Virus record (IMG/VR): IMGVR_UViG_3300032285_002884
Source of the DNA: a virus
Strand: one strand, 5' to 3'
DNA length: 64,000 bases
In this document: in pieces, positions 9,074 to 14,875 of the stretch
How the letters are laid out: each line of letters starts with the position of its first letter
How positions within the stretch are numbered: the first letter of the stretch is position 1
Made by a program: the position numbers and the translations under genes
Notes under the pieces: model-generated
Seen by the model: the letters and a program-made list of their open reading frames with translations, nothing else
The model's database searches: none
Told to the model about the DNA's origin: nothing

Positions 9074-10063
9074 ATGGCACACATGATTGAAGAGATCAAC
9101 GGCAAGGCTCAGATGGCGTACGCTGGCGAGAAGCCTTGGCACGGACTCGGTACTCAGGTACCAGCCGACCTCACACCTGCACAGATGCTCGAGGCTGCTG
9201 GCCTCAACTGGACCGTCACTAAGGTCCCTGCCTACGCCGAGATCAATGGCAAGAAGATCGCCGTCGGTAAGTCGGCCCTCGTCCGCTCTTTCGATGACTC
9301 GATGCTCGACGTCGTGTCCGATGACTGGAACCCTATCCAGAACGACGAGGCCTTTGAGTTCTTCAATGACTTCGTGATGGCCGGTGACATGGCTATGGAG
9401 ACTGCCGGTTCGCTCCGTGACGGCCAGATCGTCTGGGGCTTGGCGAAGGTCAAGGAGTCCTTTGAGCTCTTCAACGGCAAGGACGTCGTCGACTCTTACC
9501 TCCTCTTCACCAACTTCCACCGCTTCGGCTTCGCCACCGACGTCCGGTTCTCCCCTATCCGCGTCGTGTGCAACAACACCTTGACCGCCTCGCTCAATGC
9601 CAAGGTCCAGAACATGGTGAAGATCTCTCACCGCAAGAAGTTCGACCCTGAGAACGTCAAGGTAATGCTCGGCGTGGCACACGAGAAGATGGCTAAGTAC
9701 AAGGAGATGGCTCAGTACCTCTCGACCAAGCGCTACAACGGCGAGAACATCGTCGAGTATTTCAAGCGTGTCTTCCCTGCCGGCAGCGCCAAGACCGCTG
9801 AGTCGTCAGTCGACGGCGTGATCGTCGGAGCTACCGAGCTGTCGCGCAACGCAAAGCAGGCACTCAACGTCATGTACACACAGCCGGGTGCAGAGCTCGG
9901 TGAGGGTACTTGGTGGCAGGCCTTCAACACGGTCACCTACATGACCGACCACACCCTCGGTCGCTCGGCCGATACCCGACTCCAGTCGGCATGGTACGGC
10001 GCCAGCAAGAACATGAAGATCAAGGCTCTGGAGACGGCGATTGAGTTCGCCGACGCCGCATGA
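9074..10063 (+). CDS. DUF932 / phage-plasmid-like protein
   Basis: PWHGLG, METAGSL, PIRVVCNNTL, GTWWQAFNTVT. Confidence 0.9.
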   Translation: MAHMIEEINGKAQMAYAGEKPWHGLGTQVPADLTPAQMLEAAGLNWTVTKVPAYAEINGKKIAVGKSALVRSFDDSMLDVVSDDWNPIQNDEAFEFFNDFVMAGDMAMETAGSLRDGQIVWGLAKVKESFELFNGKDVVDSYLLFTNFHRFGFATDVRFSPIRVVCNNTLTASLNAKVQNMVKISHRKKFDPENVKVMLGVAHEKMAKYKEMAQYLSTKRYNGENIVEYFKRVFPAGSAKTAESSVDGVIVGATELSRNAKQALNVMYTQPGAELGEGTWWQAFNTVTYMTDHTLGRSADTRLQSAWYGASKNMKIKALETAIEFADAA

Positions 10064-11303: not shown

Positions 11304-11731
11304 TCAAGAACGAGTCTATCCTCTTCTCTGAAGATACCATCTCACGTCTCGAAGAGGTATACAGAGCCGTGTACGTCTGCGACTCCCAGCTCAAGACAAA
11401 GAACGGTTGGTCCGAGAACCCCGTCGCTGTCTTCTATACGGTCCATCCCCATCCCGAAGGCTCCAACTACTTCGGCATCTTCGTACGCGACAAGGTCCCG
11501 ATGATCTGCAACGCAGAGACAGCTCTAGAACCCTTCACTGGCGCGGTCAAGAAGAACGGCGACATCGTCTACAGCCGCTTCAGACACGACTACGTCGAGT
11601 TCGACGGGGCTTACTCCATCGACGGCGGTCGCGACTACGTCCGTCTAGGCGGGCCAGAGATGCCACAGACAGTTAAACTCAAGATAGAAGGTCCTATCGT
11701 CACGGTGGTCGAAGCACAGGAAGCAGCATGA
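11300..11731 (+). CDS. Hypothetical phage protein
   Basis: YSRFRHDY...IDGGRDY motif; ATGA coupling. Confidence 0.75.
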   Translation: MIKNESILFSEDTISRLEEVYRAVYVCDSQLKTKNGWSENPVAVFYTVHPHPEGSNYFGIFVRDKVPMICNAETALEPFTGAVKKNGDIVYSRFRHDYVEFDGAYSIDGGRDYVRLGGPEMPQTVKLKIEGPIVTVVEAQEAA

Positions 11732-12219
11732 AAGACAACTACTTTAGATTCCACTTTCCACACATCCACCTTCAGAGCCCCTTCGGCGACGACGGCTTTG
11801 CCATCATGGCCGAGAGGTTCGCCCGTTTCTTCGGCACCCCGATCTTCTTGATAATCCAGACAGCCTTAGTGCTTATCTGGATGGGACTCAACGTCTTTGG
11901 ATACACTGCCTTCGACGTCTATCCATTCATTCTTCTCAACCTAGCCTTCTCGACTCAGGCAGCATACGCTGCACCCCTGATCCTCTTGGCACAGACTCGA
12001 CAGGCTGACCGAGACAAGGCCCACGCCGAGGCAGACGCCCAGCACCGTGAAGACCTAGCCATGGCAGCTGCACAGCGGCAGCAGATCGCAGCAGAGCAGA
12101 CGGCCATCCTTCTCGAGATGCTTCACGAGAACAACAAGCTAGTCAAGAAGATCGAGAAGCTGACTAAAGAGATCCACACGATCACGACAAAGGGTGTTGA
12201 CAAAAATAGCAAGTCGTGA
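11728..12219 (+). CDS. DUF1003 family membrane protein
   Basis: ARFFGT...FDVYPFILLNLAFSTQAAYAAPLILLAQTRQ. Confidence 0.9.
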   Translation: MKDNYFRFHFPHIHLQSPFGDDGFAIMAERFARFFGTPIFLIIQTALVLIWMGLNVFGYTAFDVYPFILLNLAFSTQAAYAAPLILLAQTRQADRDKAHAEADAQHREDLAMAAAQRQQIAAEQTAILLEMLHENNKLVKKIEKLTKEIHTITTKGVDKNSKS

Positions 12220-12227
12220 TATAAATA
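12197..12227 (+). promoter_or_regulatory. Overlapping early (sigma70) and late (TATAAATA) promoter for tmRNA
   Basis: TTGACA 12197, 17 bp spacer, TATAAATA 12220-12227. Confidence 0.8.
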
Positions 12228-12231
12228 GTAT

Positions 12232-12522
12232 ATGCTGATGTCGATGACGAAAGCGAAATAGACATGCTGGACGCGGGGGCGGTACCCGCCGCCTCCACCA
12301 CAGATACATCGGTCGCCATAGTCGGAACAAATATGGTGTAATAGGTTTCTCCGAACATCCGATGTATCTTTGATGGGGGCGAAATAGGATCGACAGGTGT
12401 GTTAAAGGCGGACCGAGACAGAAGCATAAATAAGTTATCTGCAAACGATAATTCACTTCTTGAGATGCGCCTAGCGGCTTAATCTCTTGGGTATGGGTTC
12501 CACCTCGAAACAGAACGGGCCC
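12232..12522 (+). ncRNA. ssrA: Circularly permuted (two-piece) tmRNA; tag ANDNSLLEMRLAA
   Basis: Acceptor piece ending CGCCTCCACCA at 12300; coding piece starting GGGGGCGAAATAGGATCGAC at 12375; G3.U70; tag ORF 12441-12482; outer ends approximate. Confidence 0.93.
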
Positions 12523-12550
12523 ACTTCACACATCACACAGGAGAACTAAA

Positions 12551-12754
12551 ATGACTAAGACACCTTACGAGATCCGTCTCGACGTTCTGAACTTCGCACA
12601 GAATCAGCTGCAGGGAGAATACTTTGCTCAGATGGAGCGTATTCGCATGCAGAAAGATCTCAACTTACCCGTCGAATCAATTCCTAGCTATCCGACCAAG
12701 GATGACATCATCTTTCTAGCTGAAAGCCTTAAGAACTTCGTCGACACGAAGTAA
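12551..12754 (+). CDS. Conserved small T4-like protein
   Basis: AGGAG SD; KTPYEIRLDVL motif. Confidence 0.75.
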   Translation: MTKTPYEIRLDVLNFAQNQLQGEYFAQMERIRMQKDLNLPVESIPSYPTKDDIIFLAESLKNFVDTK

Positions 12755-12762
12755 GCTATAAC

Positions 12763-12839
12763 GGTCTCATAGCTCAGCTGTATAGAGCAGCCGCCTTCTA
12801 AGCGGCAGGTCGTTGGTTAGAGTCCAACTGAGATCACCA
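12763..12839 (+). tRNA. tRNA-Arg(UCU)
   Basis: GGTCTCA/TGAGATC acceptor, GCCGC-CTTCTAA-GCGGC, CCA; atypical D and T loops. Confidence 0.88.
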
Positions 12840-12861
12840 ATCAAGGAGTGGGCTATTGGAT

Positions 12862-13047
12862 ATGAAGATCGTACCCGTTTGGGTTGTCTACCTCGTAGCG
12901 GTCGTAGTTCTGATAGCTCACGACTTCCTTATCAAAGACTACATCTTTGGATTCTTGGCTTTCATGGCTTTTGCCGGAGCCTTAGTTATGAAGAACACCT
13001 ATCAGTTGGTGTTTATGGATAAGACGGAAGATGATGCTGACCAATGA
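12862..13047 (+). CDS. Small two-TM membrane protein
   Basis: AAGGAG upstream; two hydrophobic segments. Confidence 0.6.
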   Translation: MKIVPVWVVYLVAVVVLIAHDFLIKDYIFGFLAFMAFAGALVMKNTYQLVFMDKTEDDADQ

Positions 13048-13280
13048 ATATTTTTGGAATCGTTAACTCAAACTCGACCTTCTCGAGTGAGATTGAAAAG
13101 CTAGTAAGCACTAAGAACATCGACTACATCGACGCCATCGTTCTCTGGTGCGAGCGCAACAACCTAGAAGTCGAGTACGCCGCGGGCATGATCAAGAAGG
13201 ATCCCGTGCTCAAGTCTAAGGTTCAGGTCGAGGCCGAGAACATCAACGTCTTGAAGAAGGGCGCGAGACTGCCGATATGA
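13044..13280 (+). CDS. gp33: Late promoter transcription co-activator
   Basis: FSSEIEKLV, YIDAIV, LKSKVQVEAE, RLPI; synteny 33-59-32. Confidence 0.9.
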   Translation: MNIFGIVNSNSTFSSEIEKLVSTKNIDYIDAIVLWCERNNLEVEYAAGMIKKDPVLKSKVQVEAENINVLKKGARLPI

Positions 13281-13870
13281 TGGTGAGGAAGAGCGTGTCA
13301 CCCTTTGAATGCTACCAAGACTACCTTGCACTAAAGCAGCACTTCAGCCGCCCAGACTACGACTACGTAAAGTACAACGGCAAGGTCAACGCCAGACTAT
13401 CAAGCTTCGAGGGACGGCGAGACAAGATCTTCTTTGCCAAGCTCTCAAAGCATCCAGATCCTCACAACTTCCTCCTGTCCAATATGGTCAAGAACCCCAA
13501 GGTCTGGATCAAGGACATCGCGTACAACGAGTCAGCCCATCGTGTATACGAGGACTGGATGAAGAAGAACCAGTCCCTCACGTACCTCTTTAAGAACGAG
13601 GTCGGTAAGCTCAGGGACGACTTCGACAGCAACTTTAAGGTGCTCGACAACGAGCATCCCTACGCCCTCAAGCTGTACATGCAGGGTGAGATATCTCTTG
13701 AGACACTCGTCATCTTAGTAAACTTGACTAAGTGCCTAAAGCACTGGAGCAAGAAGATGGCTGACGATCCGGTCTGGGAAGAGATCAAGCTTCTAATCGT
13801 CAAGTATAATGCGTTCTTGAAATATGACGAGGAGAAGATGAAGAACATCGTAGTTGACAAGTATCAATGA
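13277..13870 (+). CDS. gp59: Helicase loader
   Basis: YLALKQHF...YDYVKYNGK, ISLETLVIL. Confidence 0.93.
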   Translation: MMVRKSVSPFECYQDYLALKQHFSRPDYDYVKYNGKVNARLSSFEGRRDKIFFAKLSKHPDPHNFLLSNMVKNPKVWIKDIAYNESAHRVYEDWMKKNQSLTYLFKNEVGKLRDDFDSNFKVLDNEHPYALKLYMQGEISLETLVILVNLTKCLKHWSKKMADDPVWEEIKLLIVKYNAFLKYDEEKMKNIVVDKYQ

Positions 13871-13951: not shown

Positions 13952-14875
13952 ATGGACTTTTCACAGCTTAAGAAGCAGTCGGGTAAATCATCTCTTGAGA
14001 AGATCGCGTCAGATCTCAGCAAGATGAATTCCAATCAACAGGAGCGTAAGTCCGACGACCGCTTCTGGTCCCCTACGGTTGACAAGGCCGGCAACGGCTA
14101 CGCAGTCATCCGCTTCCTCCCATCGCCTGCTGGCGAGGACATGCCGTTCGTCCGAGTATGGGACCACGGCTTCCAGGGCCCAACCGGTACTTGGTACATC
14201 GAGAACTCCCTCACGACAATCGGCAAGAACGATCCGGTCTCCGAGCACAACTCGAAGCTCTGGAACTCCGGCCTTGAGTCTGACAAGGAGATCGCCCGTA
14301 AGCAGAAGCGTCGCCTTCACTTCGTGAGCAACGTCTACATCGTCAACGATCCGGGTAACCCCGAGAACGAGGGCAAGGTGTTCCTCTACAAGTACGGCAA
14401 GAAGATCTTTGACAAGCTCAACGAGCTCATGAACCCACAGTTCCAGGACGAAGAGGCGATCAACCCATTCGACTTCTGGGCCGGTGCCAACTTCAAGTTG
14501 AAGATCCGTCAGGTCGAAGGCTACCGCAACTACGACAAGTCTGAGTTCGCAAAGCCTAGCCCTCTGCTGGACGACGACAAGGAACTTGAGAACGTATGGA
14601 AGAAGGAGCACTCTCTTCAGGAGTTCCTCTCACCTTCCAACTTCAAGACCTACGAGGAGCTCTCTGCGAAGCTCGCCAAGGTACTCGGCACTGACGGCTC
14701 GTCTTCGGGCGCCCGTGCAAACGCTAAGGCTAAGGCAGCCGACGAGGACGACGCTCCATGGGCCGAGGAGACCGAGGCACCTAAGGCTCGCTCGACTCCA
14801 GCTCCGCGTCAGGCTGCTACCGACGATGACGAGGACGATGGACTCGACTTCTTTAAGAGTCTTGCAAATCGCTAA
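13952..14875 (+). CDS. gp32: Single-stranded DNA-binding protein
   Basis: DDRFW, GNGYAVIRFLP, WYIENSLTT, RNYDKSEF, acidic tail. Confidence 0.97.
   Translation: MDFSQLKKQSGKSSLEKIASDLSKMNSNQQERKSDDRFWSPTVDKAGNGYAVIRFLPSPAGEDMPFVRVWDHGFQGPTGTWYIENSLTTIGKNDPVSEHNSKLWNSGLESDKEIARKQKRRLHFVSNVYIVNDPGNPENEGKVFLYKYGKKIFDKLNELMNPQFQDEEAINPFDFWAGANFKLKIRQVEGYRNYDKSEFAKPSPLLDDDKELENVWKKEHSLQEFLSPSNFKTYEELSAKLAKVLGTDGSSSGARANAKAKAADEDDAPWAEETEAPKARSTPAPRQAATDDDEDDGLDFFKSLANR

Follow-up and report, generated by a model that had tools for sequence, protein, structure and literature searches.

A stretch of 64,000 nucleotides (the window; bases 64001-128000 of a 150,648-bp T4-like IMG/VR virus record estimated to be 91% complete) carries a phage-encoded, circularly permuted tmRNA gene (ssrA) of the alphaproteobacterial type, an assignment that leaves hardly any room for doubt. 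The gene is found well above chance by two independent detectors: default ARAGORN places a permuted tmRNA (tmRNA*) at 12207-12573 with the tag ANDNSLLEMRLAA*, and the Rfam models RF01849 (alpha_tmRNA; 113.6 bits, E 3e-30, cut-off 50) and RF04321 (tmRNA_permuted; 94.2 bits, cut-off 47) are both matched over their full lengths, with several of their helices deleted or mismatched in the window gene. ARAGORN and RF04321 are also the detectors recommended by the tmRNA database (PMC11915505). An initial annotation of this DNA had proposed that the gene be checked with a covariance model or with ARAGORN, and the outcome bears it out, but its prediction that the gene would escape standard scans is incorrect, since default ARAGORN and Rfam each detect it. 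Furthermore, sequence comparison makes it likely that the gene is a functional permuted ssrA that has long been resident in a clade of T4-like (Kyanoviridae-like) phages from marine and aquatic environments, is transcribed from a phage-type promoter and acts in host-assisted ribosome rescue.

Anatomy of the two-piece RNA

The order of the two halves is as initially described, with the CCA end of the acceptor piece lying upstream of the start of the coding piece (Table 1). The acceptor stem is a 7-bp stem of the alanine type, in which the sequence verifies the pairing of GGGGGCG with CGCCUCC including G3-U70, and A73 and CCA are likewise present, as is a T loop in agreement with the Rfam alpha consensus (GGCRGUA). 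The tag frame was also read correctly, as confirmed by ARAGORN: its 13 codons have the canonical ANDN start and the hydrophobic LAA degron end of bacterial alpha tags, begin at a GCA resume codon and are followed by a stop codon enclosed in a hairpin.

Table 1. Positions in the window of the two-piece tmRNA gene, its promoter and its neighbours
Feature	Position	Strand	Basis or remark
DUF1003 protein	11728-12219		upstream of ssrA
Promoter	12197-12227	+	sequence; -35 TTGACA 12197-12202, 17-nt spacer, TATAAATA 12220-12227
Extended -10 TG	12217-12218	+	sequence
Acceptor piece, ~69 nt	12232-12300	+	Rfam alignment, covariation; 5' end predicted
Acceptor-piece 5' strands of inter-piece helices	AUGCU 12232-12236; UGUC 12239-12242; ACAU-CUG 12262-12269	+	
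T arm, loop GGCGGUA	12273-12289	+	
Acceptor 3' strand CGCCUCC	12290-12296	+	discriminator A73 at 12297; encoded CCA 12298-12300
Intervening segment, 74 nt	12301-12374	+	fold; too short for a gene
Spacer-closing stem, perfect, 11 bp	12302-12312 with 12359-12369	+	fold, covariation
Coding piece, ~149 nt	12375-12523	+	ARAGORN tag, Rfam; 3' end predicted
Acceptor 5' strand GGGGGCG	12375-12381	+	
D-loop analogue AAAUAGGAUCGAC	12382-12393	+	agrees with alpha consensus (Rfam)
P2 3' strands	12394-12400; 12417-12420; 12424-12428	+	
Resume codon GCA, tag ORF and stop UAA	12441; 12441-12479; 12480-12482	+	
Hairpin enclosing stop codon	12462-12486	+	fold
Terminal H-type pseudoknot	S1 12489-12492 with 12502-12505; S2 12495-12500 with 12517-12522	+	
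67-aa ORF, no known family	12551-12754	+	AGGAG ribosome-binding site ahead; between ssrA and tRNA-Arg
tRNA-Arg(TCT)	12763-12839	+	ARAGORN; Rfam tRNA 65.3 bits
gp33 late-transcription coactivator	13044-13280	+	PHROG 254; PF16805 Trans_coact, E 1.9e-16
gp59 helicase loader	13277-13870	+	PHROG 269
gp32 single-strand DNA-binding protein	13952-14875	+	PHROG 224

The spacer between the pieces does fold back on itself as had been claimed, closed by its perfect stem and with a folding energy of -22.2 kcal/mol when taken alone, and it is predicted to be removed during maturation by analogy with the Caulobacter two-piece tmRNA, as the latter is summarised in PMC9004378 and PMC11915505. Since a consensus scan showed no terminator downstream of the coding piece, the 3' end of that piece is only a predicted one. 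The precursor as a whole has a minimum free energy z-score of just -2.06, and the structural case therefore stands on covariation and not on energy. Two minus-strand ORFs over the locus (12139-12456 and 12182-12427) were dismissed, because the RNA gene accounts for the conservation.

Conservation among viral relatives and absence of PK1

When the structure derived from the window is mapped onto an alignment of 38 sequences, 80% of the cells are paired compared to 67% in shuffled alignments, and 290 compensatory cells are observed compared to 104, neither value being reached in any of 500 shuffles, while slid controls all fall far below the observed pairing and compensation values. The T arm is paired throughout, with four of its five pairs compensated, and the inter-piece helix P2a (ACAU-CUG with CAG-GUGU), which had been proposed from the window sequence, is 90% paired with compensatory changes in six of seven pairs. 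The spacer-closing stem is 86-96% paired with all 11 pairs compensated, and is typically 10-12 bp long in the viral contigs scanned as opposed to 4-9 bp in bacteria; stem S1 of the pseudoknot is 87% paired. The structure thus appears to be under selection, and the T arm, P2a and the spacer stem are individually supported by the covariation. The U-G pair of the acceptor stem (G3-U70) is found in 38 of 38 relatives, an invariance of the stem that is partly due to how the sequences were chosen.

Two further inter-piece helices were considered in an alignment of the 14 sequences of the window's sub-lineage. One of these, P2c (UGUC/GACA, 12239-12242 with 12417-12420), is paired in all 14 and covaries, and it fits better than the outer P2 helices of the Rfam models (GUCGA/CGGAC), which are at odds with the window and were rejected. 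The other, AUGCU/AGCAU, had been put forward in the initial annotation as holding the two pieces together, and it is indeed complementary in the window and in the closest relative among the matches listed, but support elsewhere is only moderate, its UGCU/AGCA core being mostly invariant.

The gene belongs to a widespread viral group. At least 119 IMG/VR contigs contain the 20-mer GGGGGCGAAATAGGATCGAC, which in 63 of the contigs listed lies beside gp33, gp59, gp32 or other neighbours known from the window, in the same orientation. The permuted order, with the acceptor 3' strand upstream of the 5' strand, is found in 58 of the 64 T4-context loci listed, 48 of the T4-context loci listed are called by ARAGORN, mostly with ANDN...LAA tags, and seven sampled viral loci all score 94-141 bits with RF01849. 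The divergence of the tmRNA furthermore tracks that of the adjacent gp33 (rho 0.66, p 3e-4), which is alone in doing so, the correlations with gp59 and gp32 (rho 0.34 and 0.29) being not significant. Among genome contigs, GGGGGCGAAATAGGATCGAC is nearly exclusive to Alphaproteobacteria. No bacterial gene was found to resemble that of the window beyond ~48 nt of the tRNA-like core, and the best bacterial match points to no particular host or donor lineage, since it covers this core alone.

Selection on the tag is indicated by its ends: of 78 viral tags among the matches listed, 76 close with AA and 66 open with ANDN. Phage tags vary more than those of bacteria, and they are sometimes rewritten; those of two loci (L083 and L084) end in AASA. 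In the closest relative among the matches listed (L055), the tmRNA is 91% identical to that of the window over 249 nt, gp33 is 78% identical and gp32 80% identical, but the similarity of the tmRNA ends at the resume codon and the tag has been rewritten to AKKAHNDNINYSAMKIAA, so that in phages the tag sequence is not under tight conservation.

From its 5' end to the resume codon the coding piece measures 66 nt in the window, whereas 115 bacterial alpha-type genes have 82-95 nt, and in the alignment the window's row has a gap where the PK1 segment would stand; on account of this length and alignment, the stretch linking helix 2 to the resume codon contains no PK1 in the window gene. A short form of 58-72 nt is shared by 16 viral loci including the window among the matches listed, and most viral genes scanned retain the bacterial-length form that carries PK1. 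PK1 is typical of the bacterial members without being defining, and the RF04321 model does not include it. The segment that is missing is the one in which the longer phage genes form PK1, whose stem 2 covaries in these genes when judged by eye (UGGUC/GACCA, UGACC/GGUCA, UGGAU/GUCCA), but gives a modest formal count (62% paired, 14 compensatory cells compared to 6.6 expected, 1 of 500 shuffles as high), partly because of misalignment.

In the short forms the acceptor piece opens with an extra AUGCU(G) directly after the promoter, and this can pair with AGCAU where PK1 would sit. An additional helix, formed by the 5' end of the acceptor piece with the region preceding the tag, thus appears to take the place of PK1, moderately supported as this pairing is. 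Of the pseudoknots, PK1 is held to be the only one of importance for tagging in E. coli, and an RNA without it could be altered or reduced in activity.

Promoter, genomic setting and published counterparts

The promoter had been read in the initial annotation as serving both sigma70 and the T4-late machinery, and TATAAATA does read as a sigma70 -10 element (TATAAA) plus a T4-late box, with a transcript start predicted from spacing rules at about 12232-12233. The composite TTGACA-N17-TATAAATA occurs a single time in the window, where TATAAATA as such is found at six sites, all on the + strand, compared to 0.75 expected, an eight-fold enrichment; none of the other five sites has a -35 box, and a ribosome-binding site and an ATG start codon follow at least three of them. 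Of the 46 T4-context loci among the matches listed, 35 have TATAAATA at a distance of 65-73 nt ahead of the CCA end; 28 of these 35 also have TTGACA, a single mismatch being allowed, and 22 have TG, and the cultured phage Melnitz has the identical TTGACA-17-TATAAATA architecture (L242, 2435-2465). Upstream of bacterial ssrA the motif is found in 0 of 103 genes. Conserved in the phage loci and absent from bacterial ssrA, the late-type box is by this comparison phage-specific. The reading of the promoter as early plus late is supported by the conservation of both elements. The sigma70 -10 TATAAA lacks the conserved final T, which is why a consensus promoter scan did not list the site and why early activity is not assured, although an extended -10 TG is present. 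The promoter of the Melnitz ssrA was called early by its authors (PMC9004378).

Downstream of ssrA, the 67-aa ORF has no PHROG or Pfam match and is conserved at 44-59% identity adjoining ssrA in seven viral loci (tblastn). The tRNA-Arg(TCT) is probably co-transcribed with ssrA, and two relatives (L055 and L041) likewise have tRNAs downstream of the gene. The genes gp33, gp59 and gp32 that follow form a module conserved downstream of ssrA in phages, the order being repeated in Melnitz and in the 63 viral loci. A further point in favour of a phage-type promoter is that gp33, the late-transcription coactivator, is encoded close by. The gp32 protein is ~65% identical to cyanomyophage gp32, with no cultured phage close, and a BLAST search with the locus and the surrounding 20 kb against 50,697 phage records returned no close relative, the only matches being cyanophage gp32 and a 56-nt block of the Sinorhizobium phage Phosso. 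A glutamine riboswitch (RF01739), which is present in one relative (L059), was found neither in the window at the gathering threshold nor at E values up to 1 across 12100-13100. The initial annotation had noted that smpB is missing from the window and had suggested a search of the remaining genome; no smpB (PF01668) was found in the whole 150.6-kb record, so that host SmpB would be needed, but with the record being ~91% complete an smpB gene may lie in the missing part.

Although the initial annotation implied that the gene was novel, phage two-piece tmRNAs have already been published. The tmRNA of Melnitz (a phage of OM43, Methylophilales; Buchholz et al. 2022, MZ577097) is in two pieces and encoded upstream of gp33, related ssrA genes were noted in pelagimyophage genomes, and a survey of 18,146 phage genomes counted 402 that bear a tmRNA and, out of 133 unique genes, 53 that ARAGORN called as two-piece (PMC9004378); a 2025 tmRNA database holds 79 unique phage tmRNAs (PMC11915505). 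The window gene hence adds an example to a kind of phage ssrA already published at the same genomic spot. Melnitz and the window share a T4-like (Kyanoviridae-type) genome, an alpha-type two-piece tmRNA upstream of gp33-gp59 on the same strand (the order ssrA-gp33-gp59 is that of the GenBank annotation of Melnitz), the TTGACA-17-(TGn)TATAAATA promoter, an ANDN...LAA tag and the lack of smpB, and 34 nt of a 39-nt query covering the T arm and the acceptor 3' strand align at ~85% identity. They differ in what lies between ssrA and gp33, which is a glutamine riboswitch in Melnitz and the 67-aa ORF and tRNA-Arg(TCT) in the window.

With alphaproteobacterial tmRNA of the Caulobacter type the window gene has in common the permutation, the acceptor stem with G3-U70, the GGCRGUA T loop, AAAUAGGAUCGAC, helix 2, the ANDN tag start and the conserved ...AACAGAA... 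3' pseudoknot, whereas it is set apart by being viral, by the lack of smpB and of PK1, and by the T4-late-type box. Phosso carries a 3' pseudoknot block of 56 nt that is 91% identical to 12471-12526 of the window and scores 108 bits with RF01849, but its tmRNA, which is unannotated, has a spacer of ~410 nt instead of 74 nt. Several cultured alphaproteobacterial phages have no annotated feature under a tmRNA-like match, and Phosso alone was confirmed as an unannotated tmRNA. As in the window, tRNA genes accompany the tmRNA, in large sets, in DSS3_MAL1 (where it is annotated), in the Sinorhizobium jumbo phages AP-J-162 and Phosso and in mycobacteriophages, but phage families and genomic contexts are different, and the mycobacteriophage genes are furthermore, unlike that of the window, one-piece or without a CDS (PMC11915505).

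Proposed function and alternative explanations

We consider it likely that the gene gives rise to a processed, alanine-charged trans-translation RNA that uses host SmpB and sustains rescue and tagging during infection. A single transcription unit, running from the phage-type promoter through the acceptor piece with its CCA and the stem-closed 74-nt spacer to the coding piece, would be cut by the tRNA-processing enzymes of the host, with RNase P acting at 12375 and 3' trimming to the CCA at 12300, and the two pieces would together rebuild the alanine-type acceptor stem, the T arm and helix 2. The resulting two-piece RNA would be charged by host AlaRS and would then bind host SmpB and EF-Tu, rescue stalled ribosomes and tag the nascent peptides for proteolysis of the ClpXP type. 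Since the promoter combines sigma70-type -35 and -10 elements with a late box of the gp55/gp33 type, the RNA could be made on both sides of the switch to late transcription, and rescue capacity would be kept up once host transcription stops, as phage tRNAs are thought to do for their part. Host ssrA is known to stay abundant through T4 and Kayvirus infection (PMC13478754). It should also be mentioned that Melnitz has an alpha-type ssrA and yet a host outside the Alphaproteobacteria (PMC9004378), and compatibility with host SmpB is therefore an assumption.

It may be asked whether the RNA instead out-competes host tmRNA for SmpB and stalled ribosomes and so alters the tag, and with it what becomes of the tagged proteins, or damps trans-translation by the host, with no added rescue capacity as its main effect. 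Such a competitor would have to share the SmpB pool of the host, which is what the lack of an encoded smpB implies, and the absence of PK1, the rewritten AKKAHNDNINYSAMKIAA and AASA tags of some relatives and a tmRNA without a CDS from phage DS6A, for which inhibition of endogenous tmRNA was reported in work cited in PMC11915505, may be counted in its favour. The window tag however retains the start and end of bacterial alpha tags, and the tRNA-like domain, the resume codon and the stop in its hairpin are all intact. Nothing in the sequence points to inhibition, and we regard this explanation as unlikely. A dedicated function in counter-defence, suggested in the initial annotation, by which the RNA would release ribosomes that stall when host abortive-infection nucleases cleave mRNAs or tRNAs, is more doubtful still and is a matter of speculation: it has plausibility on its side, given that tmRNA acts naturally on non-stop mRNAs and that the promoter could act throughout infection, but the locus has no linked gene for defence or anti-defence, its neighbours being gp33, gp59, gp32 and a tRNA, and the element is conserved over very diverse phages at this one housekeeping locus, which fits better with a general role in maintaining translation.

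That the gene might be a mere passenger, captured recently with host DNA or left over from the attachment site of a temperate ancestor integrated into ssrA, is suggested by the fact that tmRNA genes are common integration sites and that prophages often carry fragments of ssrA (PMC9004378, PMC11915505). The gene is however complete in length and includes both pieces as well as the tag, no tyrosine integrase (PF00589) was found in the whole record, the promoter is of a phage-specific kind absent from the 103 bacterial genes, the bacterial similarity stops at the core, and the helices have been kept by compensatory changes in the 38 phage relatives. The intact gene, the lack of an integrase, the phage promoter and the covariation effectively exclude this possibility. 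A maintained trans-translation RNA that depends on the host is accordingly the explanation we prefer, and a more far-reaching version of it may be offered tentatively, namely that the short form is a phage-specific, minimised two-piece tmRNA in which PK1 was lost and replaced by an AUGCU/UGUC inter-piece helix, and which is made both early and late from a dual sigma70/gp55 promoter. If this were true, phages would have evolved a streamlined trans-translation RNA of their own, beyond merely borrowing a host gene.

The locus is one more well-resolved example of a phage tmRNA, and it goes modestly beyond the published description in the reading of the phage-specific promoter as early plus late, in the maintenance of the spacer stem by compensatory change and in the existence of one sub-lineage that is without PK1. 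As far as comparison of sequences can tell, it shows ssrA to be conserved, and maintained by vertical descent, across uncultured T4-like phages that make up a very large group, and the presence of tmRNA genes in phages suggests that ribosome rescue can limit phage replication.

A permuted tmRNA gene and probable further tmRNA genes in cultured phages

Both Rfam models for permuted tmRNA recognize an unannotated gene in the Sinorhizobium phage Phosso, with covariance-model scores of 108 bits for RF01849 (alpha_tmRNA) and 113 bits for RF04321 (tmRNA_permuted), and ARAGORN makes no call for it. Its spacer is about 410 nt long, extending from the CCA (about position 974 of L241, the Phosso locus) to the 5' strand at 1385, and it contains two small ORFs, 57 and 51 aa long. 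Furthermore, the acceptor half of the tmRNA is matched at 85-97% identity in cultured phages whose hosts are Erythrobacter, Mesorhizobium, Ruegeria/Roseobacter, Rhodobacter and Phaeobacter (OL955261, MT188704, KT870145, MH015255, OP186293, MT270409 and PV416404). In none of these seven records is a feature annotated beneath the match, and, judged from this short acceptor-half match, they probably carry unannotated tmRNA genes.

Surroundings of ssrA and late-type boxes

Upstream of the window's ssrA, the stop codon of the gene for a DUF1003 protein falls within the spacer of the ssrA promoter. On the other side, the 67-aa ORF following ssrA is kept beside it in seven viral loci at 44-59% identity, and no Pfam or PHROG family was found for it. 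In L059, one of the viral loci compared, a glutamine riboswitch (RF01739, 60 bits) begins at the base with which the tmRNA match ends, an arrangement resembling that of the OM43 phage Melnitz, where such a riboswitch is reported; it is absent from the window and from its sub-lineage of short phage tmRNAs without PK1. Since tRNA genes follow the tmRNA in L041 and in L055, the closest relative of the window, with a gap of only about 10 nt in the former, the coding piece could in some phages receive its 3' end when RNase P cuts the adjoining tRNA.

The T4-late-type box TATAAATA of the ssrA promoter recurs exactly at five further positions in the window, none of which has TTGACA as a -35 element. 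A ribosome-binding site and an ATG follow at least three of them (43933, 52264 and 55018), so they are probably ordinary late promoters.

Coordinates of features in the window and in related loci
Feature	Location	Remark
DUF932 protein	window 9074-10063	farther upstream than DUF1003 protein
DUF1003 protein	window 11728-12219	stop codon 12217-12219
67-aa ORF	window 12551-12754	between ssrA and tRNA-Arg; good ribosome-binding site
TATAAATA boxes	window 21003, 42603, 43933, 52264, 55018	all +
Phosso permuted tmRNA	L241:866-1555 (PV764938.1 about 349553-350242)	RF01849 + RF04321
L059 glutamine riboswitch	L059:1903-1956	RF01739
tRNA genes 3' of tmRNA	L041:2586-2659; L055:3331-3403	

Variation of the tag

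The minimum free energy fold of the window's tmRNA predicts a hairpin (12433-12453) whose stem would pair AGUUAUC with GAUAAUU and whose 7-nt loop would contain the resume codon GCA. The tmRNA of L055 (3654-4007) is 91% identical to that of the window as far as the resume codon, and its tag is rewritten to AKKAHNDNINYSAMKIAA; two further viral loci, L083 and L084, encode the tag AKKSTTF...AASA. As read from these sequences, the tags of phages are evolving faster than the remaining tmRNA.
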